This document shows, in pieces, positions 3,056 through 20,464 of a stretch of 20,464 nt of DNA. The notes beneath the pieces are model-generated. The model was not told the DNA's origin. It did not search any database and saw only the letters and a list, made by a program, of their open reading frames with translations. Both the position numbers and the translations under genes were made by a program. The number at the start of each line of letters is the position of its first letter. Position 1 is the first letter of the stretch. Location: UHGV virus genome UHGV-0121713, one strand, 5' to 3'. This DNA comes from a virus.

Positions 3056-3087
3056 TTCGATTCTGAAATACATCAGAGGCATTGACC

Positions 3088-3597: not shown

Positions 3598-3604
3598 GGT
3601 GCTT

Positions 3605-3805
3605 ATGCTGACGAAAGAACCATCATTTGCATCGCTGCTGGTTAAACAAAGCCCGGCAATGCATTACGGTCACGGCTGGATCATGGGGGAGGATGGTAAA
3701 CGCTGGCATCCGTGCCGTTCACAAGATGAATTGCTGGCAGAACTATCTACGAAAAAACGGGGGAACAAATGGCTATTGAAGGCACTGCGGCGACTGTTCC
3801 ATTAA
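3605..3805 (+). CDS. Small early-operon phage protein (66 aa), occupying the position of fil in 186
   Basis: ORF in the early operon directly after cII; start ambiguous (GTG 3575 or ATG 3605). Function not recognisable from sequence. Confidence 0.4.
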   Translation: MLTKEPSFASLLVKQSPAMHYGHGWIMGEDGKRWHPCRSQDELLAELSTKKRGNKWLLKALRRLFH

Positions 3806-4110
3806 GCCCCGGTGAACGCCTGAATGGACTTAATCACATTGCGGAGTTAAGGGCGAAAGTTTTTGGCCTGAATATTGAGTCAGAGCTTGAGCGGTTTATT
3901 AAAGATATGCGTGATTCACGGGATATTAATAGCGAACAAAATAAACGGGCACTGGCTGCCATATTCTTTATGGCAAAAATTCCAGCTGAACGTCATAGCA
4001 TCAGCATTAATGAGCTGACCACTGACGAAAAGCGGGAGTTGATTAAAGCAATGAATCATTTTCGTGCAGTGGTGAGCTTATTTCCCAGACGGCTAACCAT
4101 GCCGAATTAA
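3769..4110 (+). CDS. Hypothetical early-operon phage protein (113 aa)
   Basis: ATG with GGGGGA Shine-Dalgarno 5 nt upstream; overlaps the previous ORF end, suggesting translational coupling. Confidence 0.5.
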   Translation: MAIEGTAATVPLSPGERLNGLNHIAELRAKVFGLNIESELERFIKDMRDSRDINSEQNKRALAAIFFMAKIPAERHSISINELTTDEKRELIKAMNHFRAVVSLFPRRLTMPN

Positions 4111-4177
4111 CCAACTAATGAAATTAATGGCGTAAACCCGCCGGGCATCCCTTTATCTAAATTCAGGAGAATTGATT

Positions 4178-4411
4178 ATGCGTAATATTGAAACCCTCTC
4201 GACCAAAACCGGACCGGATGACGCAGGGCTTAATATTTTACTGACAGAGGCTCGTCTGGAAGAACGCCGGGCAAGGGCTGAAGCAATGGCAGCTCGCCTT
4301 GATAGCTTGGCGTGTCATATCACATCCCGCCAGCTAACCCACGTCGAAGCGGCAGAACTGCTTCGTGTGACTGCTGAAGCAATCCAGAACGAAGCGCAGG
4401 AGATCCACTAA
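4178..4411 (+). CDS. Hypothetical early-operon phage protein (77 aa)
   Basis: ATG 4178 preceded by AGGAGA at 7-nt spacing (ORF-track start 4172 is TTG). Stop overlaps the next start (TAATG). Confidence 0.5.
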   Translation: MRNIETLSTKTGPDDAGLNILLTEARLEERRARAEAMAARLDSLACHITSRQLTHVEAAELLRVTAEAIQNEAQEIH

Positions 4412-4638
4412 TGGCTGATGCAATGGATCTCGTACAGCAGCGCGTTGAAGAAGAACGCCAACGCCATATCCGTGCTGCCCGTGCCAAAACGCCGGGCGTG
4501 TCCCGCGTGCTTTGCATTGAGTGTGAAGCGCCAATTCCGCCAGCACGCCGCCGTGCCATTCCGGGTGTGCAGCTTTGCATTACCTGTCAGGAAATCGCAG
4601 AGCTGAAAGGCAAACATTACAACGGAGGTGCTGTATGA
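4411..4638 (+). CDS. TraR/DksA-family C4 zinc-finger protein (75 aa)
   Basis: CIEC...(17 aa)...CITC four-cysteine motif in a small basic protein; typical phage/conjugative TraR-like protein found before gene A in P2-like phages. Confidence 0.7.
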   Translation: MADAMDLVQQRVEEERQRHIRAARAKTPGVSRVLCIECEAPIPPARRRAIPGVQLCITCQEIAELKGKHYNGGAV

Positions 4639-5492
4639 GCACCATCCTGAAATGGGCGGGAAATAAAACTGCCATAATGTCCGAACTGAAAAAACATCTT
4701 CCTGCTGGCCCGCGACTGGTTGAACCTTTCGCGGGTTCCTGTGCTGTGATGATGGAGACGGATTATCCCAGCTATCTGGTTGCGGATATTAATCCTGATT
4801 TAATCAACCTCTATAAAAAGGTTGCCGCTGATTGTGAATCGTTTATATCTCGCGCCAGAGTTTTATTTGAGATCGCAAACAGGGAGGTGGCTTATTACAA
4901 CATAAGGCAGGAGTTTAATTACTCAACTGAAATTACTGATTTCATGAAAGCGGTATATTTCCTGTATCTCAATCGTCACGGTTACCGTGGTTTATGTCGC
5001 TATAACAAGAGCGGGCATTTCAACATTCCCTACGGTAATTATAAAAATCCGTATTTCCCTGAAAAAGAAATTCGCGCATTTGCAGAAAAGGCCCAGCGAG
5101 CAACGTTTATCTGCGCCAGCTTTGATGAAACGCTGGCGATGTTGAAGGCGGGGGATGTGGTGTATTGCGATCCGCCGTATGACGGTACGTTTTCCGGCTA
5201 TCACACTGACGGCTTCACTGAAGATGACCAGTATCACCTGGCATCTGTTCTTGAACATCGGTCATCAGAAGGACATCCGGTCATTGTTTCTAACAGTGAC
5301 ACATCCCTGATCCGTTCGCTGTATCGCAATTTTACTCACCACTACATCAAGGCAAAACGCAGCATCGGTGTGGCAGCTGGCGAGGGTAAATCAGCAACAG
5401 AAATCATTGCTGTTTCCGGGCCGCGCTGCTGGGTGGGATTTGATTATTCGCGTGGCGTGGATAGTTCTGCCGTGTACGGAGTACGTGCATGA
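4635..5492 (+). CDS. dam: DNA N6-adenine methyltransferase, Dam (D12 class) family, about 285 aa
   Basis: N-terminal LKWAGNK...EPFAGSCAV (SAM-binding motif) and the catalytic DPPY tetrapeptide (CDPPYDGTF). ATG 4635 overlaps the previous stop (ATGA) and its stop overlaps the gene A start. Confidence 0.85.
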
Positions 5493-7903
5493 GTCATGCC
5501 GATATGAACAACTGCTGCGGCTTTAACGAAGCTGCCGCATCGTTCTCATGGAACAGCTCGAAAAAGGCCATTAACCCTTATCTGGACCCGGTGGAAGTTG
5601 CGCCGGTTTCTACGCTTTCAAACCTGATCACTCTGTACGCTGCCGATAACGAGCAGGAACAGCTGCGCCGTGAGGCGCTGAGTGATCAGGTCTGGGAGCG
5701 TTATTTCTTTAATGAATCCCGTGATCCTGTCCAGCGCGAAATGGAACAGGATAAGCTCATTAGTCGGGCAAAGCTGGCGCATGAGCAGCAGCGTTTTAAT
5801 CCGGATATGGTCATTCTGGCGGACGTCAACGCCCAGCCTTCCCATATCAGCAAGCCGCTGATGCAACGTATTGAATACTTCAGCAGCCTGGGCAGGCCAA
5901 AGGCTTATTCCCGCTATTTACGTGAGACGATTAAGCCATGTCTGGAACGACTGGAGCATGTACGCGACAGTCAGCTATCTGCATCTTTTCGCTTTATGGC
6001 AAGCCATGAAGGGCTGGACGGCCTGCTGATCCTGCCTGAAATGAGTCAGGATCAGGTGAAACGCCTGTCCACCCTGGTAGCTGCGCATATGAGTATGTGC
6101 CTTGATGCCGCTTGTGGCGATTTGTATGCCACCGATGACGTTAAGCCAGAAGAAATCCGCAATACATGGGAAAGGGTGGCAGCGGAAACCCTGCGTCTGG
6201 ATGTCATCCCGCCTGCGTTTGAGCAACTCCGTCGGAAAAGAAACCGCCGTAAACCCGTGCCCTATGAACTCATTCCGGGTTCGCTGGCGCGTATGTTGTG
6301 CGCCGACTGGTGGTATCGGAAATTATGGAAGATGCGTTGCGAATGGCGGGAAGAGCAGTTGCGTGCTGTCTGCCTTGTCAGCAAAAAAGCATCTCCCTAT
6401 GTCAGCTATGAAGCCGTGTTGCATAAACGTGAGCAGCGCCGTAAGTCGCTGGAGTTTTTCCGTTCTCATGAACTGGTGAACGAAGACGGCGACACGCTAG
6501 ACATGGAGGATGTGGTAAACGCCAGCAGCAGCAACCCTGCGCATCGCCGCAATGAGATGATGGCCTGTGTTAAAGGTCTGGAGCTTATCGCGGAAATGCG
6601 CGGTGACTGCGCCGTTTTCTACACCATCACCTGTCCGTCACGTTTCCATTCCACGCTAAATAACGGCAGGCCCAACCCGACCTGGACAAATGCGACGGTA
6701 AGACAAAGCAGCGATTATCTGGTCGGTATGTTTGCTGCATTTCGTAAGGCGATGCACAAAGCCGGGTTGCGCTGGTATGGCGTGCGGGTGGCTGAGCCGC
6801 ATCACGACGGCACAGTTCACTGGCACCTGTTGTGTTTCATGCGCAAAAAAGACCGCCGCGCCATTACAGCATTGTTGCGTAAGTTTGCTATCCGTGAAGA
6901 CCGCGAGGAGCTGGGCAATAACACGGGGCCGCGCTTTAAGTCTGAGCTGATTAACCCGCGCAAAGGAACGCCGACAAGCTACATAGCGAAATACATCAGT
7001 AAGAACATTGACGGGCGTGGTCTGACTGGCGAGATCAGCAAGGAAACGGGTAAATCTCTGCGTGATAACGCTGAATACGTGAATGCCTGGGCGTCTTTGC
7101 ATCGTGTTCAGCAATTCCGCTTCTTTGGCATTCCGGGGCGTCAGGCTTACCGTGAACTGCGATTGCTGGCTGGTCAGGCGGCAAGGCAAAAGGGGGACAA
7201 AAAAGCAGGTGCGCCGGTACTGGATAACCCGCGCCTTGATGCCATCCTGGCTGCTGCTGATGCTGGTTGTTTTGCCACCTACATCATGAAGCAGGGCGGC
7301 GTACTGGTTCCCCGTAAATATCACCTCATCAGAACCGCTTATGAAATCAACGAAGAGCCGACCGCCTATGGCGATCACGGCATTCGTATTTATGGCATCT
7401 GGTCACCCATTGCAGAGGGCAAGATCTGCACTCATGCAGTGAAGTGGAAAATGGTTCGTAAAGCCGTTGACGTTCAGGAGGCGGCAGCCGACCAGGGCGC
7501 TTGCGCCCCTTGGACTCGTGGCAATAACTGTCCCCTTGCTGAAAATTTGAACCAACAGGAGAAAGATAAATCAGCTGATGGGGACACCAGAACGGACATT
7601 ACCCGCATGGATGACAAGGAGTTGCACGATTACCTGCACAGTATGAGCAAAAAAGAGCGCCGGGAACTGGCTGCAAGGTTACGCCTGGTGAAACCGAAAC
7701 GGCGTAAAGACTACAAACAGCGAATTACAGACCATCAGCGACTGCAGCTCGTCTATGAGCTGAAGTCCAGAGGATTTGATGGTAGCGAGAAAGAGGTCGA
7801 TTTACTCCTTCGCGGCGGCAGTATTCCGTCAGGAGCAGGCCTGCGTATCTTCTATCGGAACCAGCGTTTGCAGGAAGATGATAAGTGGCGGAACCTGTAT
7901 TAA
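5489..7903 (+). CDS. A: P2 gpA-family replication initiation (rolling-circle nicking) protein, 804 aa
   Basis: Large protein at the end of the early operon with the size and position of P2/186 gene A. Contains a HWHLLCF-type histidine-hydrophobic motif and tyrosine-rich motifs ([10 protein letters not shown]) typical of rolling-circle initiators. Confidence 0.85.
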
Positions 7904-7972
7904 TTACGCGGGTTAACAATTCGTGCTCTTAATAATACCAGGCATATCAGGCTGATGAACGTAAAAAAACGT

Positions 7973-8015
7973 TTTACATCAGTAATATTATTATATACTG
8001 TAAATATAAACAGTA
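7973..8015 (+). promoter_or_regulatory. SOS-regulated promoter: -35 TTTACA (7973..7978), -10 TATACT (7994..7999), overlapping LexA box TACTGTAAATATAAACAGTA (7996..8015)
   Basis: 20-bp site matches the LexA consensus CTGT-N8-ACAG with an AT-rich centre and overlaps the -10, the classic SOS operator arrangement. It lies inside the ORF-track ORF beginning at 7955, which argues against that start. Confidence 0.7.
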
Positions 8016-8056
8016 GTTATCTATACAGTATTGTTTGCGGTGTCATAGGAGGAAAG

Positions 8057-8245
8057 ATGCAGGACTATTTTTTGGAGTCTTTGAAGCTCCAGCGCATTGA
8101 TTTTTTTCTTAAGCTTGTAGCGGCTAGTGAGTGTAGTGATGAAGAGAAGGGGCTGGCTCTGCAGTGGGTTTCTGAACTGACAGATGAACTCATGGCAAAA
8201 ATCAGAACCCACGAATACAACCGCTCAATGGATGTCATCAGCTGA
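8057..8245 (+). CDS. Small protein (62 aa), first gene of the LexA-controlled operon; possibly part of a Tum-like antirepressor module
   Basis: ATG 8057 preceded by AGGAGG; downstream of the LexA box; followed 10 bp later by the DinI-like gene. Confidence 0.45.
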   Translation: MQDYFLESLKLQRIDFFLKLVAASECSDEEKGLALQWVSELTDELMAKIRTHEYNRSMDVIS

Positions 8246-8255
8246 GGTGACTTTT

Positions 8256-8489
8256 ATGCGCATTGAAATAATGATCGATAAAGAGCAGAAGATTAGCCAG
8301 TCTACACTGGACGCCCTTGAATCCGAGCTTTACCGCAATCTGCGCCCTCTGTATCCCAAAACGGTAATCCGTATCCGTAAAGGTAGCTCTAACGGTGTGG
8401 AACTGACCGGACTGCAACCGGACGAAGAAAGAAAACAAGTGATGAAAATTATGCAGAAGGTGTGGGAAGACGACAGCTGGCTGCATTAA
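8256..8489 (+). CDS. DinI-family protein (77 aa), probably SOS-inducible; comparable to the DinI-like part of 186 Tum
   Basis: MRIEIMIDK...LDALESELYRNLRPLYP...VWEDDSWLH resembles E. coli DinI (MRIEVTIAK...) in length and in the acidic tryptophan-containing C-terminus. GAGGTGA Shine-Dalgarno upstream. Confidence 0.7.
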   Translation: MRIEIMIDKEQKISQSTLDALESELYRNLRPLYPKTVIRIRKGSSNGVELTGLQPDEERKQVMKIMQKVWEDDSWLH

Positions 8490-8933
8490 GAAATGTTGCC
8501 CCCAGGAGGATTCATTCTAATGGGGGCTAGTTTGGGCAACGAGTGAAACGAGGCGTAAGGTGGGTAATCATTTTGATAAGTGATCGCCCACTTTGTGCCA
8601 AAAGCGGACATCGCAGATATGACAATATGTTAGTCAACCGCGATTAGATCAGTCAGTTGGAGATGGGGGGAAGTTACAAAAACTTGTCGTCCGCCATCTC
8701 CGACTACGGGTATTCTTAACTGTACATGCTCTTTCAATCGATGATTTTTGAGTAAGTGACTAACCTATTGTTTTGATAGTAATTAAACGTATAAACGTGC
8801 GGAGTTAATTTGAAAGTTATGTGTCTATGTTTGACAAGCAAAATTTTAAAGATTGGTTTTATCCACAGGTAATTTATGCTATTAATAGCCTCAAGCCCTG
8901 TAATTATTTTTATTTAAATGGATAAATTTGAAA

Positions 8934-11054
8934 ATGAGTACATATCATAATGATCAGCCAATACTAGGTGGTCAAAATGACCCCGATTTATTAAACAGGC
9001 TCGATTTTGCAAATCACTTGGCAAATATTCTACTATTAAATCACAATGATGATTGCCTTACTGTATCTATAGAGGCAGAGTGGGGATATGGTAAAACGTC
9101 AGTGATAAATCTTATAAAAGGTGCTTTGAATGAAAAGGAGTTCTTACCAATAATAATAGAATATAATCCATGGCTGGCCGGTCAACCTGAATCCTTGATT
9201 CAGGATTTTTTATTACAGTTCTCTTCACAACTAAATATTAAAGACAATTCAAAAGCTGCTTTGGAAGCTTCAAAAGAATTAATTGCATACTCCAATCTCT
9301 TCAGTGTAGCAAAACTTATTCCAGGGACAGAACCTTGGGCATCTATCATAGAAAAAGTCCTCTCTAATTTTGGGAGTGCTACTAAAAAGATTGCTGAATT
9401 AAAAAAACTGGATCTTTTAGGTAGAAAAAAACAAGTAGAGAAGGCAATAAAAAAAATAAAAAATCCTATTGTGGTAATAATTGATGATATTGATCGATTG
9501 ACTCCTGCAGAAACTTTTCAAGTTTTACGATTGGTTAAAGCAGTTGCAGATTTCTCAGGAACTTCTTTTTTACTTGCATTTGATCCTAATTATTTGATTT
9601 CTGTGCTTGATAAAAATAATATCGTCAATTCTTCGGAGTATCTTAATAAAATTGTTCAACTTCGAGTCCCACTTCCTGTAATCTCAGAAAGGGGTATGAA
9701 TGAACTTGCAAATGCAGAACTGGAAAAGATAGCTAATAAATCTTTAACTGACAGATTCGAAAGTGATCAAGAAAGACTAAGCTGGATTTATCATAATTAT
9801 TTTAAAAAACTAATTAAGAATCCGAGAGAGTTAAAAAGATTTTTTAACCATTTGAGATTCGTTTTAGAGCAAATTGAAGGGCAGGTATGTTTTTCTGATC
9901 TCTTTGCTTTATCTCTGGTCGCCACTAAATCGAGTTTGGTATACGAGCATATTAAAAGCACACCAGAGGCATATATAGGGAAGAGATTCACTAATGATGG
10001 CCTTTTGATGGATAAACCTCAAGATATTGTGGATAGATTTAGTGATGAGCGAAATAAGAAACTGAGTAATTTTTCTGATCAAGAGCGTTCAGTGATGCAG
10101 GAACTCTTAGGAGATATTTTCCCACTTCTACAGTCAAGCGGGTATTCTCATTATGGGGTTTCTGATCCCGATACAGCAGGAAGGGTTTCTGCACCACAAA
10201 GGCTTCATATTGCGTTTCATTATAAAACTCCAGCAGGGTATATTTCTGATCATGATATTATCAGTTTCATTAATGGAGATGTCAAAAGAAACGAATTTCT
10301 AAGAGATGTGCTCTCGCAAAATGCAGAAGAAAGATTTTTTGAAATGATGAATAATTATTCGAGTTATTGTAAGGATAATAGTTTTGAAATATTAACGTGT
10401 ATTTATGATACTTTTCTGTTTTCTCAAGAATTGAAATCCTCATTGGAAAGAAACTATGGTTTTTTGACAAAAGATCTTTATAGAAGGATGAATTGGCTCA
10501 CTAATAAGGTAATATCTGAAAGTGATGATAAATATGGGTTAATAAAGGGGGTTGTAGGTAGGCATGAGAATGCGCCACTTGGTGCAGACGTATTATGCCA
10601 AGCTCGTAAACAGATTCAAAATGGATGGAATGACAAAATATGGGTTAGTATTGAAGAATTGGCTGAACTTGAAGGTATCTTTCAACAGGTGGCTATTAAA
10701 GTTTTAAGTGATAAAATATATTTTGATTATCATCTTGAATCTCATATATTTTTCGAATTAAAGAGAGTTTCATCTCAATTTACATCAGAGTTTATTGCTT
10801 CTGTATTATCAAGTGATGGCCTGATTAGGATGTGTGAGATTATTGGTGAAACAGGTAGTGATTCAACAAATGGCCCTTATTTTAAGTTTGATGAAATTTA
10901 CTTCGGGGAAATACTTGATGTGAATGAACTTCGAAATAAAGCGAAAAATTTAGATTTTTCAATTTATCCCACACGCATTCAAGCTGTACTTAAGAGTATT
11001 CTGGATGGACAAAAATATTATTTGAGAGATGCAACTGTTGGTGAAGATTGGTAA
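8934..11054 (+). CDS. KAP-family P-loop NTPase (PifA-like), about 706 aa; candidate abortive-infection/defence protein
   Basis: Walker A EAEWGYGKTS (about 9072..9101) and KAP-type Walker B IVVIIDDIDRL (about 9465..9500). Gene is visibly AT-rich with several A7-A8 tracts, unlike the flanking phage backbone. ORF-track start 8928 is TTG; the first ATG is 8934. Confidence 0.7.
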   Translation: MSTYHNDQPILGGQNDPDLLNRLDFANHLANILLLNHNDDCLTVSIEAEWGYGKTSVINLIKGALNEKEFLPIIIEYNPWLAGQPESLIQDFLLQFSSQLNIKDNSKAALEASKELIAYSNLFSVAKLIPGTEPWASIIEKVLSNFGSATKKIAELKKLDLLGRKKQVEKAIKKIKNPIVVIIDDIDRLTPAETFQVLRLVKAVADFSGTSFLLAFDPNYLISVLDKNNIVNSSEYLNKIVQLRVPLPVISERGMNELANAELEKIANKSLTDRFESDQERLSWIYHNYFKKLIKNPRELKRFFNHLRFVLEQIEGQVCFSDLFALSLVATKSSLVYEHIKSTPEAYIGKRFTNDGLLMDKPQDIVDRFSDERNKKLSNFSDQERSVMQELLGDIFPLLQSSGYSHYGVSDPDTAGRVSAPQRLHIAFHYKTPAGYISDHDIISFINGDVKRNEFLRDVLSQNAEERFFEMMNNYSSYCKDNSFEILTCIYDTFLFSQELKSSLERNYGFLTKDLYRRMNWLTNKVISESDDKYGLIKGVVGRHENAPLGADVLCQARKQIQNGWNDKIWVSIEELAELEGIFQQVAIKVLSDKIYFDYHLESHIFFELKRVSSQFTSEFIASVLSSDGLIRMCEIIGETGSDSTNGPYFKFDEIYFGEILDVNELRNKAKNLDFSIYPTRIQAVLKSILDGQKYYLRDATVGEDW

Positions 11055-11170
11055 TACTTTTATAGGCATGCTTAGAGATGATGGAGTATCTTTTTCTCCC
11101 TTTTGAGGAAGTGATTTCCAACTGGGCATGGATGCCACATCAAATGGACAGTTGTTGTCACCTGTCAGTT

Positions 11171-11240
11171 AGCTGCTATTTGTTTATAGCAGCTGAAAGC
11201 CCACTACATAGTTACACCAGAAGGAGTAACAATGTAGTGG
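11171..11240. repeat. Two adjacent strong inverted repeats (hairpins) in the intergenic region after the KAP gene
   Basis: IR1: agctgctat (11171..11179) / atagcagct (11186..11194), perfect 9-bp stem. IR2: ccactacatagttac (11201..11215) / gtaacaatgtagtgg (11226..11240), 14 of 15 bp paired with AAGGAG in the loop. The 10-mer CCACTACATA recurs at 11478..11487. Confidence 0.5.
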
Positions 11241-11496
11241 ATAGCTAAATTTGACCACCTTAACAGATATGTTAATTTCCCCCCTCGCTCACAGCGGACT
11301 TTCATCTTTGTAAACCCTTATAATTCGCTTTTCAGCGGTCATTCAGATACGGATTTACGCTTTCCTTGGCAGTGCATGACTATGACGCATGAGATCGCAT
11401 GATCGTTTGAGGATCGTTTTTGCTGAGGCCAGCCAGAACTGGCGTGCTTTTGCTTATGTCATGCAGGTGCATGAAAACCACTACATAAAGTGGGCA

Positions 11497-11515
11497 GGCG
11501 TGGCGGGGATACGAG
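11497..11515. other. Candidate cos (cohesive-end) remnant of the P2/186 family
   Basis: GGCGTGGCGGGGA (11497..11509) matches the first 13 nt of the 19-nt P2/186 cohesive end as I recall it (GGCG[A/T]GGCGGGGAAAGCA[C/T]); the next 6 nt diverge. It sits in a local GC-rich patch inside otherwise AT-rich cargo. Not verified by alignment. Confidence 0.3.
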
Positions 11516-11645
11516 CGCGCGCTAACTCTTGGCTTTGTTTCATAATCAAAAATGTGATCATTGAGATTATTCTTAATTTTATGTTTGTCTATGAAATATC
11601 ATTTCGCTTAACATTGTTTGAGTTAGGACTACATGAGAATAAAGA

Positions 11646-12221
11646 ATGCTTTTACCCGTAAGTGTTACATCGTGTGGCTTGTATCACCCCTACTGGCATT
11701 TGGGAGAGCGCAACCCTCATAGCGATGAACTATCAAGGCAGATGATGGATTTTAAGGATGAAAATAATCGTAATCATCAAAGGGCTATTAACCGTTTTTC
11801 TCGATTAGCTATAGATAAGGTTGGGCGGTTAGTAATCAGAGGTGGCGGTGGGCGTTTTGTTGAGTCTCCTTTTTCGATAGCAGTCGTCCCATCTCACACT
11901 GAAGGCAGAATTTCACCGGCTTTGATTGAGGTCGCCGAGCGAATCGTAAATGTTCACCGTCGGGGCATTGTTGATTGCTGTTTGGAAAGAACACGCACTG
12001 TTCCTAGCGCACATCGTGAAGGAGGAGATCGCTCAATTACTGGTCACATGTCTAGTATCAGAGTTAGGGGTGGTAACCTCATGGGGCGAAATGTGTTACT
12101 ACTAGATGATGTTAAAACAACAGGCGGTAGTTTGTCTGCGTGTTTTTATTTACTGGAGTCTGCAGGAGCTGGAGTTATAATGCCATTAGCTCTGCTAGAA
12201 ACTGCAAACTATGAGGAGTAG
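11646..12221 (+). CDS. Type I phosphoribosyltransferase (PRTase) domain protein, 191 aa; candidate defence effector (ShosT-like / ComF-like)
   Basis: PRPP-binding signature VLLLDDVKTTGGSL (hydrophobic stretch-DD-x-x-TTG). In-frame TAA two codons upstream fixes the 5' limit. Overlaps the next gene by 11 nt. Confidence 0.7.
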   Translation: MLLPVSVTSCGLYHPYWHLGERNPHSDELSRQMMDFKDENNRNHQRAINRFSRLAIDKVGRLVIRGGGGRFVESPFSIAVVPSHTEGRISPALIEVAERIVNVHRRGIVDCCLERTRTVPSAHREGGDRSITGHMSSIRVRGGNLMGRNVLLLDDVKTTGGSLSACFYLLESAGAGVIMPLALLETANYEE

Positions 12222-13185
12222 CAAAGTGCACTCAGAAGAATTAAAAAATACACTTGGATTAGCTATTCAAATCGGGAAGCTAGCATCTGATCAAAGTGTA
12301 TTGAAATTCTTTGAGCTTATTGATTTTGATGTTATTCGTGATATACGCGACTTAACTGAGATGGTTAATAGCCACGGGTTTCTAAAAGATAAAATATCTG
12401 AGACTGATTTTCTAATAGCGAATGCTGAATTGGAGAACCACCATGTTAATGGTGTGGAGCTAATACCATATGGGTCTGAATTCTATCCTCTTAGTTTAGC
12501 GTTTACTCCTAATCCACCATCAATTCTCTACATAAAAGGGGATAAAAGTATACTAAAAGAATTGCCGGGTGTCGCAATTGTAGGATCCCGTGATACTTCC
12601 CCTGCAGGGGAAGAAATAACGAGGCGAATCACTAATCAGATAGTGTCTGCTGGGTATATTGTTGTAAGTGGGTTAGCAATAGGCACTGATGCGAATGCTC
12701 ATAAGGCAACGTTACAAGCAAAAGGAAAAACCATTGCTGTCTTGGCGCATGGTCTTGAGGAGGCTAAGCCGAAGCAAAACAGTCGACTTGCTCAAGAGAT
12801 TCTGGATAAAGGTGGTGCATGGATTTCTGAGTATCCTATGGGGCGACCGGCCCAGAAACAATCATTTGTACAAAGAAATCGGATACAAGTTGGATTATCT
12901 GCAGGTTCAATTTTAATCGAGGCTGCGTTAAATAGCGGAACGATAACTCAAGCTGAGTTTGCAAATAAGGCTAAAAGACCAGTGTTTGCGGTTGTACCTC
13001 ACCTACCTAATAATCCGCTTAATCTTAATTGTGAGGGAACAGTTGATTTAGTTAAGAGCAACATGGCTAGAGCGTTAAAAACAAAACGGGATTATGATGA
13101 TGTGATTATGATCATAAATGAGTCTCGGGAGTATTTGTTAGAGCTAAAATGGCCAGGGAAACAGAGTACATTAGACTTGATTTAA
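12211..13185 (+). CDS. DprA/Smf-like (SLOG-superfamily Rossmann) protein, about 320 aa; candidate defence partner (ShosA-like)
   Basis: DprA core motifs VAIVGSRDTSPAGEE and IVVSGLAIGTDANAHKA, then TIAVLAHGLEE and RNRIQVGLS. Start is ATG 12211 or GTG 12226 (the latter has a GGAG Shine-Dalgarno at 7-nt spacing). Confidence 0.75.
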   Translation: MRSSKVHSEELKNTLGLAIQIGKLASDQSVLKFFELIDFDVIRDIRDLTEMVNSHGFLKDKISETDFLIANAELENHHVNGVELIPYGSEFYPLSLAFTPNPPSILYIKGDKSILKELPGVAIVGSRDTSPAGEEITRRITNQIVSAGYIVVSGLAIGTDANAHKATLQAKGKTIAVLAHGLEEAKPKQNSRLAQEILDKGGAWISEYPMGRPAQKQSFVQRNRIQVGLSAGSILIEAALNSGTITQAEFANKAKRPVFAVVPHLPNNPLNLNCEGTVDLVKSNMARALKTKRDYDDVIMIINESREYLLELKWPGKQSTLDLI

Positions 13186-13209
13186 AGCGCCTCTTTTAGA
13201 GGCACTTTG

Positions 13210-13866
13210 CTAAATTTGATATCTCTCGAATTTTATAATTTCTTCACCGCTCCAATGATTAAATTCTTTCATTCTTTTTTGTAATGGTAATAATTCATTT
13301 TTCACAAATACCTTACTAGCTTTTTCTACATCCCCAAATCCCCCAACATTATTAGGCATTATCCCCATCATCTGTGGCGGAACGCGATGTGCTGCCATCA
13401 TGTCATCCCGGCTCACGTTCTTGATATTTAGAAACTCATCCTTCGCCGCAACTTCTGACAAAGGGATGATCTGAAGGCCGTCCTTTTTGCCGTTAGGCGA
13501 GTACATAAACAGGTTGCGGAAGTTACCCGGACCTTTGGCACTTTTCATTGCATTGCGGAGGTTGTTCACGTCCTCCTGGTTCTGCGCAGCATCGGTCATG
13601 TACATGATGAAGCCTGCATGACTACCGTTAATGTAATACTTGCGGCGGAACAGCGTGGCGGACTCATTGAGCAGGGCGGACGGAATGGCAGAAAGATAGC
13701 TGGGCAGGCCGTAGATCTCCTGGTTAATGTCCGGTTCCATCAGATGAAAAATGCTGCCTTTCGTGAACTGATACGGCTGGGTTGTCATACCGTATTGCAC
13801 AAACCAGTAGGTATCCAGGTCTAACCCGCGTCGGGTGTATTTTGCCAGAGCAGGCTCAAGGGCGAC
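13210..13866 (-). pseudogene. Q: 3' fragment of the portal gene Q (P2 gpQ family), 5'-truncated by deletion
   Basis: Encodes about 218 aa of portal-like C-terminal sequence (...YINGSHAGFIMYMTD...LQIIPLSEVAAKDEF...). The open frame runs upstream into unrelated sequence; the N-terminal third and the adjacent terminase P are absent. Upper boundary is approximate. Confidence 0.65.
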
Positions 13867-14054
13867 AACGACAACACCGGATTGAGGAACTGAAACGTGA
13901 GAACGAGGATTTACGCCGCTGGGCTGATACACCTTTGCCTGCTGACATTATCCGGCTGCGGGAACGCCCCACACTCACCGGAGGTGCAGATTACCGTCAG
14001 TGGTTGTCCGCGAGTGACGCCGTGTCGGCTGGGACAGGCAGCGCCGCGCACTAA
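13866..14054 (+). pseudogene. lysB: 3' fragment of lysB (Rz-like inner-membrane spanin), 5'-truncated
   Basis: Coiled-coil, charged C-terminal peptide ...HRIEELKRENEDLRRWADTPLPADIIRLRERP directly upstream of R, as in P2 (lysA-lysB/lysC-R-S). No holin or endolysin upstream. Boundary approximate. Confidence 0.45.
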
Positions 14055-14187
14055 CGGTGGCCTGAACGCGTTGCTGGATGAAACGGAGGCCGCCTGGGCG
14101 GTCTGTGCAGACAAAGTGGACATGATTATTGCGTGTCAGGAGCGAAACAGTGAACAAACCACAATCCCTGCGCCACGCCCTCAATAA
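13897..14187 (+). CDS. lysC: LysC-like (Rz1-type outer-membrane spanin lipoprotein) embedded ORF; probably non-functional remnant
   Basis: +1-frame ORF inside lysB with lipobox LTLSGC and a proline-rich tail; GTG start; stop overlaps the R start. Confidence 0.35.
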   Translation: MRTRIYAAGLIHLCLLTLSGCGNAPHSPEVQITVSGCPRVTPCRLGQAAPRTNGGLNALLDETEAAWAVCADKVDMIIACQERNSEQTTIPAPRPQ

Positions 14188-14581
14188 AGCGGTGCCTTAT
14201 GTCCGCAATAACCCGGACAAACTGCATCTGTTTGTGGATAACGGTTCGCTGGTTGCCACGGGGGCCAGCTCCATGTCATGGGAGTACCGCTATACCCTGA
14301 ACGTGGTGATAGAGGATTTCAGCGGCGACCAGAATCTGCTGATGGCCCCGGTTTTACTGTGGCTTCGGGATAACCAGCCCGATGCCATCAATAACCCGGC
14401 GTTACGGGAAAAGCTATTCACCTTTGAGGTGGATATTTTGCGCAACGATGTCTGTGATATCAGCCTTAACCTGCAATTGACGGAACGTGTGCTGGTCAGT
14501 ACTGACGGCAGTGTGTCGAGCGTTGAAGCTGTAGCAGAACCCGATGAACCTGAAGAAATGTGGACGGTGAAACGTGGCTGA
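14150..14581 (+). CDS. R: Tail completion protein (P2 gpR family), about 143 aa
   Basis: MNKPQSLRHALNKAVPYVRNNPDKLHLFVDNGS... resembles my recollection of P2 gpR (MLKPDSLRRAL...IFVDNGS). GTG 14150 with AGGAG Shine-Dalgarno at 7 nt; ORF-track start 14129 is TTG. Confidence 0.7.
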   Translation: MNKPQSLRHALNKAVPYVRNNPDKLHLFVDNGSLVATGASSMSWEYRYTLNVVIEDFSGDQNLLMAPVLLWLRDNQPDAINNPALREKLFTFEVDILRNDVCDISLNLQLTERVLVSTDGSVSSVEAVAEPDEPEEMWTVKRG

Positions 14582-15020
14582 ACTGCAGAAGGTGGACGAC
14601 TGGCTGAGTGCCTTGCTGGCGAATCTGGAACCAGCCACGAGAAGCCGCATGATGCGCCAGCTGGCGCAGGAACTGCGCCGGACACAGCAGCAGAATATCA
14701 GGATGCAGCGCAATCCAGATGGCAGCAGTTATGAACCGCGCAGGGTAACAGCACGCAGCAAGAAAGGCCGCATCAAACGTCAGATGTTTGCAAAGTTGCG
14801 CACCACAAAATACCTGAAAACTGCCGCCAGCGCCGACTCTGCCAGCGTACAGTTTGAAGGCAAGGTGCAGCGTATTGCCCGTGTTCACCATTACGGCCTG
14901 CGTGATCGCGTCAGTCGCAAAGGACCGGAGGTCCGTTACGCAGAGCGCCGCCTGCTGGGTGTAAATGATGATGTTGAGGCAATGACCCGCGACATGATTC
15001 TGCAATGGCTGGCGGGGTGA
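14574..15020 (+). CDS. S: Tail completion / virion morphogenesis protein (P2 gpS family), 148 aa
   Basis: Follows R with overlapping GTG start and stop (GTGGCTGA), matching the P2 R-S order and size. Confidence 0.65.
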   Translation: MAELQKVDDWLSALLANLEPATRSRMMRQLAQELRRTQQQNIRMQRNPDGSSYEPRRVTARSKKGRIKRQMFAKLRTTKYLKTAASADSASVQFEGKVQRIARVHHYGLRDRVSRKGPEVRYAERRLLGVNDDVEAMTRDMILQWLAG

Positions 15021-15088
15021 TCTTTGTATCAGCACTGATACAAGTTGCAGCACTGCCGCCTTTCTTCCCCTGATGGCAACCTTTCCCT

Positions 15089-15295
15089 ATGAACGCACAA
15101 TTAACCGAAATCATGCGCCTTATCACCAACCTGATCCGCACTGGTGTAGTCACCGAAGTGGACCGGGAAAACTGGCTTTGCCGGGTGAAAACGAGCGACC
15201 TTGAAACCAACTGGATTAACTGGCTGACGCTGCGCGCGGGTAAACGCGCTGCCGCAGGACAAGCGCCTGTCTGCCATGACTATGTTGTTTGGTAA
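15089..15295 (+). pseudogene. V: 5' fragment of baseplate spike gene V (68 codons), truncated
   Basis: MNAQLTEIMRLITNLIRTGVVTEVDRENWLCRVKTSDLETNWINWLTLRAGK resembles the P2 gpV N-terminus; the frame ends after 68 codons where tape-measure-like sequence begins in another frame. Confidence 0.6.
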
Positions 15296-16082
15296 AGAGT
15301 TTGGCGATGACGCGGCGAAACTGGCAAACAACCTGCCGGAACTGCAGCGTCAGTTAAAACTGACAGCGGGCAATGATGCGCTTGGCTCCATGCAGAAAGA
15401 ATCCGACATTAACAAGGATTCACTTTCTGCGCAGTGGTTGCTGGTCAAAACCGGAGCGCAGAACACCTTCAGCAGCCTGGGCGAAACGCTGCGCCAGCCG
15501 CTGATGGATATTCTGTACACGGTGAAAAGCATCACGGGAGCGTTGCGCCGCTGGGTGGAAGCTAACCCGGAACTGACAGGCACACTGATGAAAGTATCGG
15601 CTGTTGTGGCTGCGGTTACCGTCGGCCTCGGCACCTTAGCGGTGGCGCTGGCTGCAGTGCTGGGGCCGCTGGCAGTGATCCGTCTGGGATTCTCTGTGTT
15701 GGGTATCAAAACGTTATCTTCCGTTACGGCAGCAGTAACTCGAACCAGCAGCGCGTTGTCCTGGCTGGCTGGCGCACCACTGGCACTGCTGCGACGCGGG
15801 CTTGCTTCATCGGGCAACGCCGCAGGTTTACTTACTGCGCCGTTGTCGTCTTTGCGCCGCACGGCATCACTGACGGGAAATGTCCTGAAAACTGTAGCAG
15901 GTGCGCCGGTTGCACTTTTGCGGTCTGGATTATCCGGTTTACGTGCTGTTGCTGTGATGTTTATGAATCCTCTGGCGGTACTGCGCGGTGGACTGGCCGC
16001 CGCAGGCACGGTGCTGCGAGTACTGGCATCTGGTCCACTGAATCATTGTCCGATATGTTCGGTGATCTCAGTGCGCAACTGA
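15276..16082 (+). pseudogene. T: Internal fragment of tail tape-measure gene T
   Basis: Ala/Leu/Gly-rich repetitive hydrophobic segment typical of tape-measure proteins; only about 268 codons, abutting the V fragment. W, J, I, H, G, FI, FII, E and most of T/U are absent. Confidence 0.55.
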
Positions 16083-16149
16083 ATAATCTGCAGGACACGG
16101 CAACGTCTGCCTTAAGCGATATCAGTAAAACGGTGGGAGGGCTGCTGTC

Positions 16150-17250
16150 GTGAATTTCAGCTCTGAACTGCTTAACAAAGGCAACAAAACTCCCGCATTC
16201 AGCATCAGTATTGAGGGCAGGGATATCACCACTGTGCTGGATAACCGCCTGATGAGTCTGACGCTGACGGACAATCGGGGCTTTGAAGCGGACCAGCTTG
16301 ATCTGGAGCTGGACGACGCCGATGGAAAAATAGCGCTGCCGCGCCGTGGTGCGGTCGTTACGCTGGCGCTGGGCTGGAAGGGGCAGCCGCTTTTCCCGAA
16401 AGGGGCATTCACGGTGGACGAGATTGAACACACTGGCGCACCGGACCGCCTGACTATCCGGGCGCGAAGTGCTGATTTTCGGGAAACGCTGAATACCCGC
16501 CGTGAAAAGTCGTGGCACAAGACCACTGTCGGGGAAGTGGTGAAGGAAATAGCTGTGCGGCACAAACTGAAGATGGCACTGGGTAAAGACCTGTCAGATA
16601 AACCCGTGGAACATATAGACCAGACCAATGAGAGTGACGGCAGTTTTCTGATGCGGCTGGCGCGCCAGTACGGTGCTATTGCGTCGGTGAAAAATGGCAA
16701 TCTGTTATTCATCCGGCAGGGACAGGGTAAAAGCGCCAGCGGTAAACCACTACCGGTGATCACTATCACACGTAAGGACGGCGACAGTCACCGCTTTACC
16801 CTGGCAGATCGCGGAGCCTATACGGGCGTAATTGCCAGTTGGTTGCATACCCGCGAACCCGCGAATAAAGAAAGCACCACGGTGAAGCGTAAGCGCAGGA
16901 CTAAGAAGCAGAAGAAAGAGCCGGAAGCGAAGCAGGGCGATTACCTGGTGGGTACGGATGAAAACGTGCTGGTACTTAATCGCACCTATGCCAACCGGAG
17001 CAACGCCGAACGGGCGGCAAAAATGCAGTGGGAACGCCTGCAACGCGGCGTTGCGTCATTCTCGCTACAACTGGCGGAAGGGCGGGCAGATCTCTACACG
17101 GAAATGCCAGTGAAAGTCAGTGGCTTTAAACAGCTGATAGATGATGCGGAATGGACCATTACGACTCTGACACATACCGTCAGCCCGGATAACGGTTTTA
17201 CGACCAGTCTGGAGCTTGAAGTGAGGATTGATGATTTCGAAATGGAATGA
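16150..17250 (+). CDS. D: Tail protein D (P2 gpD / late control D family), 366 aa
   Basis: Position immediately before ogr at the prophage right end, and size, match P2 gpD. GTG start with GGGAGG Shine-Dalgarno at 9 nt, overlapping the stop of a short upstream U-like remnant frame. Confidence 0.75.
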   Translation: MNFSSELLNKGNKTPAFSISIEGRDITTVLDNRLMSLTLTDNRGFEADQLDLELDDADGKIALPRRGAVVTLALGWKGQPLFPKGAFTVDEIEHTGAPDRLTIRARSADFRETLNTRREKSWHKTTVGEVVKEIAVRHKLKMALGKDLSDKPVEHIDQTNESDGSFLMRLARQYGAIASVKNGNLLFIRQGQGKSASGKPLPVITITRKDGDSHRFTLADRGAYTGVIASWLHTREPANKESTTVKRKRRTKKQKKEPEAKQGDYLVGTDENVLVLNRTYANRSNAERAAKMQWERLQRGVASFSLQLAEGRADLYTEMPVKVSGFKQLIDDAEWTITTLTHTVSPDNGFTTSLELEVRIDDFEME

Positions 17251-17340
17251 TTCTTCGCAATGGAGAACTTTTAAGTTTGCAAAATGGAATAATGCGGTAT
17301 CATTATTGTGAATTTAGCAAAAATGGGGAGAACTCGAAAA

Positions 17341-17559
17341 ATGATGATTTGCCCACTGTGTGGAAGTGCCGCCCATACTCGCAGCAGTTTTCAGGTATCT
17401 TCATTGACCAAAGAGCGTTACAACCAGTGCCAGAACATTAACTGCAGCCATACTTTTGTTACCCATGAAACTTTTGTTCGTTCGATTGCAACGCCAAAAG
17501 AGTCAAATCCGGTTCAGCCGCATCCAATGAAATCAGGACAGGTAGCGCTCTCTCTTTGA
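17341..17559 (+). CDS. ogr: Ogr/Delta-family zinc-finger late transcription activator, 72 aa
   Basis: MMICPLCGSAAHTRSS...ERYNQCQNINCSHTF matches the P2 Ogr CxxC...CxxxxC zinc-finger pattern and its 72-aa length. ORF-track start 17308 is an upstream GTG extension. Confidence 0.8.
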   Translation: MMICPLCGSAAHTRSSFQVSSLTKERYNQCQNINCSHTFVTHETFVRSIATPKESNPVQPHPMKSGQVALSL

Positions 17560-17636
17560 CGCTGCCGCCATTTTGTCGCCATCGTTAAAAAACAGTGCTT
17601 CTAACATCATGATCTTAAACAGCTTAAATTTCAGGC

Positions 17637-17650
17637 AACAAAAAACCCAT
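17637..17650. repeat. Candidate attR core: AACAAAAAACCCAT, identical to 603..616
   Basis: Exact 14-bp direct repeat of the left boundary, located between ogr and the ybjL 3' end. Confidence 0.45.
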
Positions 17651-17682
17651 CAACCTTGAACCGAAGTAGCGGGGTTGATGGG
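17637..17682 (-). terminator. Intrinsic terminator of ybjL (minus strand)
   Basis: Stem cccatcaacc (17646..17655) / ggttgatggg (17673..17682), followed on the minus strand by a U-run (the + strand A-run at 17641..17645). Confidence 0.5.
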
Positions 17683-17794
17683 CTCCACAAAATGGGGGCA
17701 TCAAAGAAAAGCAGTGGCACTAATTAAGACTGATGCCCTGCGGAAAAGTTCTGCGGTTGTGCAAAAAAATTTCATTTTCAGGGCAACTTCAGTT

Positions 17795-19480
17795 TTATCC
17801 TAATCCTGGCCATACCATGACGATGATTGTCCCTGCCAGCGTCAGCAGGACGTTGGCGATTGCATAGGTGCCCGCATAGCCCAGCGCCGGGATGTTACTG
17901 CGAGCTGTATCACTGATGATCTCCATTGCCGGCGCGCAGGTACGTGCGCCCATCATTGCGCCGAACAACAGCGCGCGGTTCATTCGCAATACATAAGCAC
18001 CGAACAAGAAACAGATAACCACGGGCACCAGACTGACAATCAATCCGGCAATCAACATCTGACCGCCAATCGCGCCCAGGCCGTTATTAATACCGCTACC
18101 GGCGCTCAGACCAACGCCTGCCATAAACACCATCAAGCCGAACTCTTTCACCATGCTTAATGCACCCTGCGGAATGTAACCGAAGGTCGGGTGGTTAGCA
18201 CGCATAAAGCCCAGCATAATTCCGGCGAATAACAACCCGGCAGCGTTCCCCATGCCGAAACTGAATGTGCTGAACTGGAAGGTGATCATCCCGATCATCA
18301 GCCCAATAACAAAGAAGGCGCAGAATGCCAGCAGGTCAGTGACCTGGCTGTGAATCGAGATAAAGCCGATGCGATCGGCGATGGTTTTTACGCGGCGGGC
18401 ATCGCCGCTGACTTGTAAAACGTCACCTTTGTTAAGCACGACGTTGTCATCTATCGGCATCTCAATCTGGCTACGAATGACGCGGTTAAGGAAGCAACCG
18501 TGATCGGTCAACTTCAGTTGTGCGAGACGTTTACCTACAGCGTTATGGTTTTTAACGACCACTTCTTCAGTGACGATACGCATGTCGAGAAGGTCACGAT
18601 CGAAAACTTCTTTACCGTTACGGAAGCTGGGATCGAGTCGGGCATGGGCGTCGGGATAGCCTACCAACGCTATTTCATCGCCCATTTGTAGCACGGCATC
18701 ACCGTCTGGATTTGCCAGAATCCCGTTACGTCGAATACGTTCAATGTAGCAGCCGGTTTGTCGATAAATACCCAGTTCACGCAGATTTTTGCCGTCGGTC
18801 CAGGCCACCAGTTCCGGGCCGACGCGATAGGCGCGGATCACCGGTAAATAAACCTTACGGTTGGCATCAGTGTCCAGGCCACGTTCGCGGGCGATTTGCT
18901 GGGCGCTGGTCTGTAAGTCCTGATGCTGCAATTTCGGCAAGTAACGCGCACCAACAATCAAACTCACCAGACCGATTAAATAGGTTAAGGCATACCCGAG
19001 GCTCAGATTATCCAGTGCCAGTGAGAGCTGCCTGCTTTCCATGCCGGAATGACGCAGTGTATCGCCAGCACCGACCAGAACCGGTGTCGACGTCATAGAG
19101 CCTGCTAACATACCGGCCGTCAGGCCAATATCCCAGCCAAACAGCTTACCTAACCCTAAGGCGATCACCAGCGCACTGCCAACCATCACCAGTGCTAACA
19201 TTAGGTAATTTTTCCCATCGCGAAAAAAAATGGAAAAAAAGTTCGGTCCGGCTTCGACCCCGACGCAGAAAATAAACAGCATAAAGCCAAGATTAAGCGC
19301 ATCGGTGTTAATGCTGAAATGTTGTTGGCCTAATAACAGCGATACGACTAAAACGCCAATGGAATTACCCAGTTGGATCGAACCAAGTCGTAACTTTCCG
19401 AGACATAGCCCAAGCGCGAGGACCACAAATAATAACAGAATGTAATTCCCATTTAACAATTCGGCGACGTTTATATTCAC
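17795..19480 (-). CDS. ybjL: Putative transporter YbjL (AAE-type membrane protein with central TrkA-C-like regulatory domains), 561 aa
   Basis: Long hydrophobic N- and C-terminal halves flanking a soluble central region; translation begins [21 protein letters not shown], as I recall for E. coli YbjL. GTG start. Confidence 0.85.
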
Positions 19481-19749
19481 GGAGGCTAACTTCTTGTTTA
19501 CTAGTAAGCTGTTGAAAGAAATGGTAATTTACGATAATGTTTTTTACCAGAATTCAGGGCGCAGATTCATTCAGCGCACCTAAACGATAGTAAAGTAACA
19601 ATATATTTTACTAGTGTAATCACATTAGGTATCAACGGCTATATGAATTGCGTTGGCCTATATTAGCATGGAATGCGAAGCGGCTTTATCTTACTGAACG
19701 CCACACTGGCGAAAAATGTGTTCGATAGACGCAGTGTCAGGAGGAACGA

Positions 19750-20127
19750 GTGAAACATAAACAACGTTGGGCGGGGGCAATCTGCTGTTTTGTCCTCTTC
19801 ATTGTGGTGTGCCTTTTTCTGGCGACGCACATGAAAGGCGCTTTTCGGGCTGCCGGGCATCCTGAAATCGGCTTGCTATTTTTCATTCTTCCTGGAGCAG
19901 TCGCCAGCTTCTTTTCACAGCGTAGAGAAGTCCTGAAACCTCTGTTTGGCGCAATGCTGGCGGCACCCTGTTCGATGCTCATTATGCGGCTGTTTTTTTC
20001 ACCGACGCGCTCATTCTGGCAAGAGCTGGCATGGTTACTAAGCGCGGTGTTCTGGTGTGCGCTGGGGGCACTGTGTTTCTTATTTATCAGTAGTTTGTTT
20101 AAACCACAGCACAGAAAAAATCAGTAA
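19750..20127 (+). CDS. ybjM: Inner membrane protein YbjM, 125 aa
   Basis: Four hydrophobic segments; MKHKQRWAGAICCFVLF...; GTG start with AGGAGG Shine-Dalgarno at 5 nt; conserved position between ybjL and grxA. Confidence 0.75.
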   Translation: MKHKQRWAGAICCFVLFIVVCLFLATHMKGAFRAAGHPEIGLLFFILPGAVASFFSQRREVLKPLFGAMLAAPCSMLIMRLFFSPTRSFWQELAWLLSAVFWCALGALCFLFISSLFKPQHRKNQ

Positions 20128-20147
20128 AGCCCTCAACGCGAGGGCTT
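20127..20147. terminator. Hairpin between convergent ybjM and grxA (probable bidirectional terminator)
   Basis: aagccctc (20127..20134) / gagggctt (20140..20147), 8-bp stem with a 5-nt loop. Confidence 0.45.
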
Positions 20148-20156
20148 GTCAGACGA

Positions 20157-20414
20157 TCAGGCGTCCAGATTTTCTTTCACCCATGCAGCAAAATCGGTAT
20201 AGCCGCCGATATGTTGCTGATCGACAAAAATCTGCGGCACGGTTTCTACGGGTTTACCTGCCTTTTGTTGTAGATCTTCTTTAGTGATCCCTTCCGCACG
20301 AATATCTACATACTGATACTGAAAATCATCGCGTTCATTGCTCAATTTCTCAGCCAGATCTTTTGCACGCACACAGTAAGGGCAACCCGAACGACCAAAA
20401 ATAACGGTTTGCAT
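20157..20414 (-). CDS. grxA: Glutaredoxin 1, 85 aa
   Basis: MQTVIFGRSGCPYCVRAKDLAEKL... with the CPYC active site. ATG 20414 preceded by AGGAG at 7 nt; the ORF-track start at 20429 is an upstream extension. Confidence 0.9.
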   Translation of the reverse strand: MQTVIFGRSGCPYCVRAKDLAEKLSNERDDFQYQYVDIRAEGITKEDLQQKAGKPVETVPQIFVDQQHIGGYTDFAAWVKENLDA

Positions 20415-20464
20415 TATTTCTCTCCTCATAGATTTATGCCTGTAATGATCACGCTAAAATGTAT

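Follow-up and report, generated by a model that had tools for sequence, protein, structure and literature searches.

Phages P2 (NC_001895, Peduovirus) and 186 (NC_001317, Eganvirus) served as references for the element described here, a prophage remnant in the 20,464-nucleotide (nt) UHGV virus genome UHGV-0121713 (the whole stretch is called the window, and its numbering is used throughout). The gpA-gpQ interval of P2-like phages is a known defence hotspot, where a phosphoribosyltransferase (PRTase)-DprA system has been discussed, and cos-adjacent defence hotspots are common to P2-like phages and P4 satellites (PMC9122126). Prophage decay, in which lytic and structural functions are deleted and immunity and accessory genes are kept, is familiar from the literature on "grounded prophages" and domestication (PMC6379469). 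The window belongs to this well-known kind: it is an ordinary decayed P2/186-like prophage remnant in the Escherichia coli chromosome, although this individual has not been described. We conclude with high confidence that positions 617-17650 are a defective remnant, 17,034 bp long, of a P2-like (Peduoviridae) prophage that measured 34,016 bp and had a lysogeny switch of the 186 type, and that this remnant was formed within the chromosome through three late-gene deletions from a parent like the prophage of E. coli BE311. Compared with cryptic prophages generally, nothing about it is qualitatively different, except that it is young and precisely datable and that its intact parent is known. Its scientific weight is low; it offers a clean, datable example of decay with parent and product known to the base.

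The relationship to P2 and 186 is evident in gene order and in homologous proteins. P2-type homologues stand in P2 order (int, repressor, A, cos, Q ... lysBC, R, S, V ... T, U, D, ogr), as judged by tblastn with P2 and 186 proteins, Pfam domains and collinearity with BE311. Identity to the 186 proteins by tblastn is 56% for integrase (residues 1-329), 69% for CII, 82% for Fil and 35% for A, and identity to P2/186 proteins is 60% for Q, 54-55% for D and 51-54% for Ogr/B. Also in common are a cos core of the 186 type, a tum-like operon under LexA control and a hotspot for cargo between A and Q. In contrast, P2 and 186 DNA matches the window in only four short patches at 68-73% identity, the attachment site is rybB rather than ileY as in 186, the cargo is PifA-like and ShosTA-like rather than the old/tin or orf97 of P2/186, and half of the late region is deleted. 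Judged by these genes, the phage is a P2-like peduovirus whose control region (cI/apl/cII/fil/tum) is of the 186 type, and it is not P2 itself.

Integration at rybB and the full-length prophage of BE311

The element is integrated at the 3' end of the small RNA (sRNA) gene rybB, in the rcdA-ybjL interval. A 14-bp direct repeat, AACAAAAAACCCAT, at 603-616 (attL core, the left prophage boundary) and 17637-17650 (attR core) marks the attachment-site duplication that bounds it, and the empty site of strain K-12 has one copy of this core, at the 3' end of rybB. The core is the last 14 nt of the sRNA gene, and a complete rybB is left at attR after integration (17637-17715, minus strand; full length, Rfam RF00110, 97.7 bits). 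In a megablast comparison of the window with 5,426 complete E. coli genomes, essentially every genome had its chromosomal flanks (rcdA to the left; ybjL, ybjM and grxA to the right).

Four of these strains (BE311, F41, K99S and EC24.26) cover 100% of the window, in four pieces that extend over 37.4 kb compared to 20.5 kb in the window, and each has a full-length prophage at the same chromosomal site. A first-pass annotation, made from the window alone, had read it as a defective prophage with multiple in-situ deletion junctions and suggested looking for related strains with the full-length version; these four strains carry it. The prophage of BE311 (NZ_CP097213, 3,055,387-3,089,237; 34,016 bp; locus L001 in the coordinates below) is annotated with a complete P2-like gene set and zero pseudogenes. 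Its order is integrase, CI, CII, Fil, replication endonuclease, DinI-like protein, KAP nucleoside triphosphatase (NTPase) and DprA-like protein in the early part; portal, terminase, scaffold, capsid, small terminase, head completion, X, holin, lysozyme, LysA, LysB and LysC in the head and lysis part; and R, S, V, W, J, I, fibre, fibre assembly, invertase, sheath, tube, E, E', tape measure, U, D and ogr in the tail part.

Aligned to L001 by blastn, the window falls into four collinear blocks, and hence three junctions, as the multiple-junction reading had supposed. Window positions 1-13869 correspond to L001 501-14369 (2 mismatches), 13864-15243 to 21294-22673 (0 mismatches), 15239-16040 to 31392-32193 (0 mismatches) and 16039-20464 to 33521-37946 (4 mismatches). 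The two prophages thus share integration site, cargo, gene order and sequence over 20.4 kb except for 6 single-nucleotide polymorphisms (SNPs; 6 mismatches in 20,464 bp), none of which lies in the two retained internal pieces. What the window lacks is 6,930 + 8,723 + 1,329 = 16,982 bp. In BE311 this DNA codes for the portal N-terminus, P, O, N, M, L, X, Y, K, LysA and the LysB N-terminus, together with most of V, all of W, J, I, H, G, the invertase, FI, FII and E/E', and most of T and U. The polarity is that of deletion, because the genes concerned are only partly present in the window but complete in BE311, P2 and 186; for the same reason, an insertion gained by BE311 was rejected. Since no substitution relative to BE311 has accumulated in the retained late pieces, the event is young. 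Essential genes are therefore truncated in the window, whereas an intact and nearly identical prophage at this site still has the parts they lack, and the virion and lysis gene set that a functional phage requires is incomplete.

Three deletion junctions in the late region

Pairwise alignment to P2 and 186, by which exact breakpoints were originally to be located, was unsuitable, as the breakpoints are unmappable in patches of such low identity; the BE311 prophage and protein mapping were used instead. At junction 1 (13864-13869), where 6,930 bp (L001 ~14370-21299) has been lost, the minus-strand portal gene Q is joined to the middle of plus-strand lysB. The 3' fragment of Q (13210-13865, minus strand) is 5'-truncated and keeps residues 125-341 of 341, its open reading frame (ORF) running through the junction to 13932, and the 3' fragment of lysB (13866-14054, plus strand) keeps residues ~80 to 142 of 142. 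This agrees with the portal-lysB join that had been predicted near 13866. Terminase P, scaffold, capsid, holin and endolysin, said to have been removed with it, are indeed inside the missing BE311 block, and protein mapping finds none of them. At junction 2 (15239-15243; 8,723 bp lost, L001 ~22674-31396), codon 51 of V runs out of frame into residue 439 of the tape-measure gene T. The 5' fragment of V (15089-15243, plus strand) consists of 51 codons, followed by 17 out-of-frame codons that complete a 68-aa ORF (15089-15295). The first-pass annotation had recognized this fusion of V to an internal tape-measure fragment, but its placement at 15260-15280 was ~20-40 bp too far to the right and its estimate of about 60 codons of V was too high. 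The T fragment (15244-16038, plus strand) spans residues 439-706 of 1025. At junction 3 (16039/16040; 1,329 bp lost, L001 ~32194-33522), which had been implied earlier but is located only now, T residue 706 is joined to U residue 125. The 3' fragment of U (16041-16153, plus strand) holds its last 37 codons (residues 125-161 of 161) and overlaps the start of D at 16150, corresponding to the short U-like frame that had been noticed ending there.

Mapping with P2 and 186 proteins by tblastn independently gave the same picture. The alignments cover residues 123-339 of 344 for Q, 84-134 of 141 for LysB and 5-54 of 211 for V, and LysC, R, S, D and Ogr are full, while these two protein sets revealed nothing in the window that corresponds to P, O, N, M, L, X, Y, K, LysA, W, J, I, H, G, FI, FII or E. 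The head, terminase, holin/endolysin, baseplate, fibre, sheath and tube genes have thus all been lost. Pfam domains found in the full-length BE311 proteins are incomplete or missing in the fragments: the PhageMin_Tail domain (residues 246-457 of the full BE311 T) is almost entirely gone from the T fragment, what remains of U falls outside its GpU domain (residues 6-125), and V' holds only part of its OB domain. All five pieces (Q', lysB', V', T' and U') match parts of the full-length BE311 genes at 100% identity. The first-pass annotation had named full-length but divergent genes as the finding that would overturn it, and this alternative fails, as the genes are full-length in the near-identical BE311 prophage.

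Junction 3 also creates a T'U' fusion ORF (15276-16082, plus strand; 268 aa) that comprises T residues 452-706, starting from the internal Met452, plus 13 out-of-frame residues. Downstream of a putative PV site (see below), this ORF has a long hydrophobic stretch rich in Ala, Leu and Val from the middle of the tape measure, and its product, if expressed, would be an aberrant, membrane-prone protein. Public gene catalogues carry T'U' as a 268-aa protein. The five fragments should be annotated as pseudogenes and not as catalogue "proteins" of 240, 68 and 268 aa.

Carriers of the remnant were found in public assemblies by exact sequence look-up of the three junction-specific ORFs, which recovered 17 contigs with T'U', 18 with Q' and 24 with V', from different isolate runs and from human-gut metagenomes. 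Every carrier contig of sufficient length has all three junction 50-mers (that of junction 1 is present in 18 carrier loci). Over 8-17 kb, the carriers are 0-7 SNPs away from the window, and they form several haplotypes; the remnant is therefore stably inherited. The triple-junction remnant exists in nature as a lineage passed on by vertical descent, and assembly error does not explain it. The window's junctions are absent from all 5,426 complete E. coli genomes, where only other deletion derivatives occur, and the exact junction patterns had zero matches in IMG/VR, JGI metagenomes and GTDB representative genomes.

The junctions were also checked for microhomology, as had been suggested. Each has identity in the range of 1-10 bp at both parental ends: GA perfect, or GAYAAC at 5/6, at junction 1; GGTAA at junction 2; and TG at junction 3. 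No long repeats, insertion sequence (IS) ends or insertions were found at the three junctions. Short microhomology in the absence of such repeats and IS ends is characteristic of illegitimate, RecA-independent deletion. Because the junctions have only 2-6 bp of microhomology and none of these other features, we infer that a BE311-like full-length prophage lost three late-gene blocks (6.9, 8.7 and 1.3 kb) within the chromosome by illegitimate, RecA-independent deletion, which may have proceeded by replication slippage or template switching or by microhomology-mediated end joining. With the killing functions lost and immunity and defence kept, the lineage could then have retained the remnant. 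Several observations weigh against this account. Random joins are expected to show at least 5 bp of microhomology in ~0.5% of cases and at least 2 bp in ~16%, so that only junction 2 is clearly above chance (p ~0.005), compared to 2 bp at junction 3 (p ~0.16) and 2 bp perfect or 5/6 at junction 1. In addition, no unambiguous intermediate with one or two of the deletions was found in the complete E. coli genomes, public contigs, IMG/VR, JGI metagenomes or GTDB representatives. Finally, selection for the spared modules is indistinguishable from clustering by a single event. Counted in favour of the account is a simulation in which only 1.7% of non-overlapping random placements of three deletions of the same sizes spared the whole int-to-cargo block, which is mild evidence for selection or for a single clustered event. 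Selection for this block is plausible, because loss of cI would be lethal while the replication and fil genes remain and because defence cargo is useful.

The alternative that survives best is a single complex event, in which serial microhomology-mediated template switching of the FoSTeS/MMBIR type (fork stalling and template switching/microhomology-mediated break-induced replication) made all three junctions in one episode of fork collapse, for example during abortive in-situ replication of the prophage. We regard this as unlikely, although it deserves real consideration. The three junctions always occur together in carriers that have since split into several SNP haplotypes, they are collinear in one 19.2-kb span with retained pieces of 1,380 and 802 bp between them, their microhomology is uniformly short, and the missing intermediates noted above are what a single event predicts. 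However, the databases are sparse for this lineage, making the lack of intermediates weak evidence; templated insertions and inversions are absent at the junctions; and single deletions are frequent in relatives, which makes three sequential hits plausible. A further point concerns a 3.1-kb metagenomic contig (L029; ERZ28656387 scaffold_19400), which might be an intermediate with junction 2 only. Ahead of R-S-V' and junction 2 come X, holin, lysozyme, LysA and a complete LysB, so that junction 1 is lacking, and the contig stops 50 bp beyond junction 2. It differs from BE311 at 58 of 3,067 bp, and from the window at 8 of 1,430 shared bp, all 8 in the first 933 bp and none in the last 497 bp. 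Given this stepwise fall in divergence, the contig was not accepted as an intermediate and is most likely a metagenomic strain chimera or a recombinant. The earlier claim of three independent deletions therefore stands as to their number but not as to their independence, since the junctions are always together in long contigs and the one apparent exception is probably chimeric. Three sequential deletions or one multi-switch event could each account for the remnant, the latter with the lower probability, and the lineage provides a case study for whether multi-junction prophage decay is stepwise or occurs in one replication-based event.

Retained modules and their possible functions

The early half of the prophage was spared, as the first-pass annotation had stated for the lysogeny module and the cargo: int, cI, apl, cII, A, the tum operon, cos and both cargo systems are intact. 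The integrase gene (691-1743, minus strand) and the gene for the 186-type CI repressor (2139-2708, minus strand; Pfam Phage_CI_repr and Phage_CI_C) are intact and are annotated as such in BE311. The early operon that follows (2834-7903, plus strand) encodes apl-like, CII, Fil, DUF5347, DUF2732, TraR-like, Dam methylase and replication endonuclease A proteins, also intact, with a single nonsynonymous change in A relative to BE311 (S766N). A LexA box (7996-8015; TACTGTAAATATAAACAGTA in the window versus TACTGTATGTTTATACAGTA in 186 p95) precedes a tum-like/DinI-like SOS operon (7996-8489 with the box, plus strand; Pfam DinI), in which residues 71-145 of 186 Tum align at 41% identity. All of the parts of a 186-type lysogeny/SOS switch are therefore present (CI, the apl, cII and fil homologues and the LexA-boxed tum/DinI-like operon), and their regulation is presumably of that type.

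The 186-type cos site (11484-11515, plus strand) is retained, with 26/26 identity to the joined 186 cos ends at 11484-11509, where GGCGTGGCGGGGA matches the 186 cohesive end. Cargo sits on either side of it. On the A side is a PifA-like KAP-family P-loop NTPase (8934-11054, plus strand; Pfam KAP_NTPase 2e-46, PADLOC PifA 6.7e-65, the PifA match being limited to profile positions 2-456 of 720). Between cos and Q is a pair (11646-13185, plus strand) that consists of a ShosT-like gene (11646-12221; PADLOC ShosT 3.6e-14) and a ShosA/DprA-like gene (12211-13185; PADLOC ShosA 2.8e-70, Pfam DNA_processg_A). The 191-aa ShosT-like ORF is unannotated in the RefSeq records of BE311 and NCTC9041. A 90-aa ORF (11389-11661) overlaps cos; it has no family match in Pfam or PADLOC and is probably spurious.

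Five late genes also survive whole. The tail completion genes R (14150-14581; Pfam P2_Phage_GpR) and S (14574-15020; Pfam Phage_tail_S), the late control/tail hub gene D (16150-17250; Pfam Phage_GPD; N239K relative to BE311) and the late transactivator gene ogr/B (17341-17559; Pfam Ogr_Delta), all on the plus strand, are intact as first described, but they are not the only ones, because lysC (13939-14187, plus strand; Pfam LysC 2e-14) is intact too. LysC, R and S are 100% identical to their BE311 counterparts. Intactness of R, S, D and ogr is uninformative about selection, since the retained fragments have zero substitutions relative to BE311. The intergenic region between P and O, which contains the PO/PP promoter region, falls inside deletion 1, so that lysC, R and S have presumably been cut off from their late promoter. 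In contrast, a putative Ogr-dependent activator site for PV (15025-15042, plus strand), one of only 4 TGT-N12-ACA motifs in the window, lies 47 bp upstream of the V start, at the place equivalent to that of the pV activator site in P2. This suggests that PV survives and would drive V'-T'U'-D if Ogr were made.

What the remnant may still do can be predicted from these genes. It would be expected to confer 186-type immunity, and immunity and SOS derepression may both still work; it probably confers PifA-like and ShosTA-like anti-phage defence; and after SOS induction it may be able to excise and undergo A-dependent replication. Because all capsid and terminase genes and most tail genes have been lost, no virions are expected, and without capsid, packaging, lysis and tail assembly the remnant should be unable to form particles or lyse the cell. 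Microhomology-mediated deletions would thus have removed the lethal and structural functions, while immunity, SOS control, replication, cos and two defence systems survive.

The same inventory raises the question of whether the remnant is a functional, satellite-like hitcher dependent on a helper, which excises, replicates, transactivates a co-resident P2-like helper, is packaged as a dimer in helper capsids and so spreads two defence systems. We consider this very unlikely. Like a P4-type hitcher, the remnant has cos, its own integrase and an Ogr/Delta-type transactivator; its lysogeny, replication and SOS modules and ogr are intact; the hotspots beside cos are of the kind that P2-like phages share with P4 satellites; and at 17,034 bp it is 50.1% of the 34,016-bp parent, so that a dimer would make one headful. 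However, neither satellite-specific genes, such as a capsid-size determinant (e.g., Sid/Psu) or a helper derepressor, nor spread to other sites or hosts was found: all of the genes are collinear with the full-length phage, and the carriers all share one chromosomal site and near-identical flanks, a pattern that only vertical descent fits. The junctions are also absent from IMG/VR, the useless fragments Q', lysB', V', T' and U' look like the product of accident and not of design, and the half-length match is probably a coincidence. The evidence that points toward a satellite is of one kind, gene content, and we give the idea little credence on that basis. Equally doubtful is the related proposal that the half-length remnant is a nascent phage satellite, from which every gene that can be borrowed has been lost and in which int, the cI/apl/tum switch, the A replicase, cos and ogr have been kept. 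If true, the remnant would be a snapshot of how P4-type satellites might arise from their own helpers, spreading its PifA-like and ShosTA-like systems after SOS induction, and in any case it offers a case study for whether cos-bearing, replication-competent remnants are mobilised by related helpers.

Variant contigs, other derivatives and the rybB allele

That the junctions might instead be assembly collapses or chimeras, or the fragments misread full-length divergent genes, is hardly credible: beyond the general possibility and the chimeric look of one metagenomic contig (L029) nothing favours it, and it is refuted by identical junctions in about 17-24 contigs from independent isolate runs and metagenomes, by the impossibility of assembler collapse from 2-6 bp of microhomology, and by fragments that are 100% identical to parts of BE311 full-length genes and align only partially to P2/186 proteins. 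Two short metagenomic contigs (L012 and L013) have junctions 2 and 3 together with 13-20 clustered SNPs in D (16500-17019), which suggests recombination with other P2-like prophages or mixing of strains. In the first of these (a k141 contig), SNPs also lie 75-100 bp from junction 2, and therefore a slightly diverged variant truly carries junctions 2 and 3.

Other derivatives of this prophage family have decayed in a similar manner. NCTC9041 has one 14.8-kb deletion from O to T; in C21, two deletions (P to J and H to U) are accompanied by an IS5 insertion; 2017.04.02CC is deleted from J to T; and Z0117EC0133, in which the prophage is at ssrA, is deleted from V to T. Like the window, all four have deletions in the late region that spare both prophage ends and keep D and ogr, and the right end points are often in T or U. 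However, every junction differs from the window's three, and these are therefore independent decay events. The right end of the NCTC9041 deletion, in T at L001 32234, is ~40 bp from the left end of the window's third deletion (32194), and the right end of a C21 deletion, in U at 33475, is ~46 bp from the right end of the same deletion (33521). These near-coincident end points (loci L002 and L033) could be a local deletion hotspot or chance, the cases being few.

The stretch from T' through U', D and ogr to attR (15239-17697) is 96-97% identical to the Klebsiella pneumoniae peduoviruses 4LV2017, KP12 and the Kp48xx series, and those records end in the same rybB-type attR. The tail-end and att module is therefore common to both genera almost unchanged.

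Three of the 6 SNPs relative to BE311 (17666, 17668 and 17698) cluster in a 33-bp part of the 79-nt rybB. In the RNA sense, the changes are GAUGUCCCC to GAUGCCCCC and CGCCAUUUC to CGCUACUUC; they affect unpaired positions that are conserved in the Rfam model, and with them the score drops from 105.3 to 97.7 bits. The allele was found in 0 of the 5,419 complete E. coli genomes that match the segment, the best identity being 97% over 101 bp. Transfer from Klebsiella through the related phage 4LV2017 was rejected as its source, as only 1 of the 3 variant bases matches Klebsiella rybB. Among the deletion carriers, the allele is confined to a sub-lineage (the window, ERR1790592 and ERZ28577082) in which the three bases always occur together, and it could have originated by a short recombination tract, a multi-nucleotide mutation or selection.

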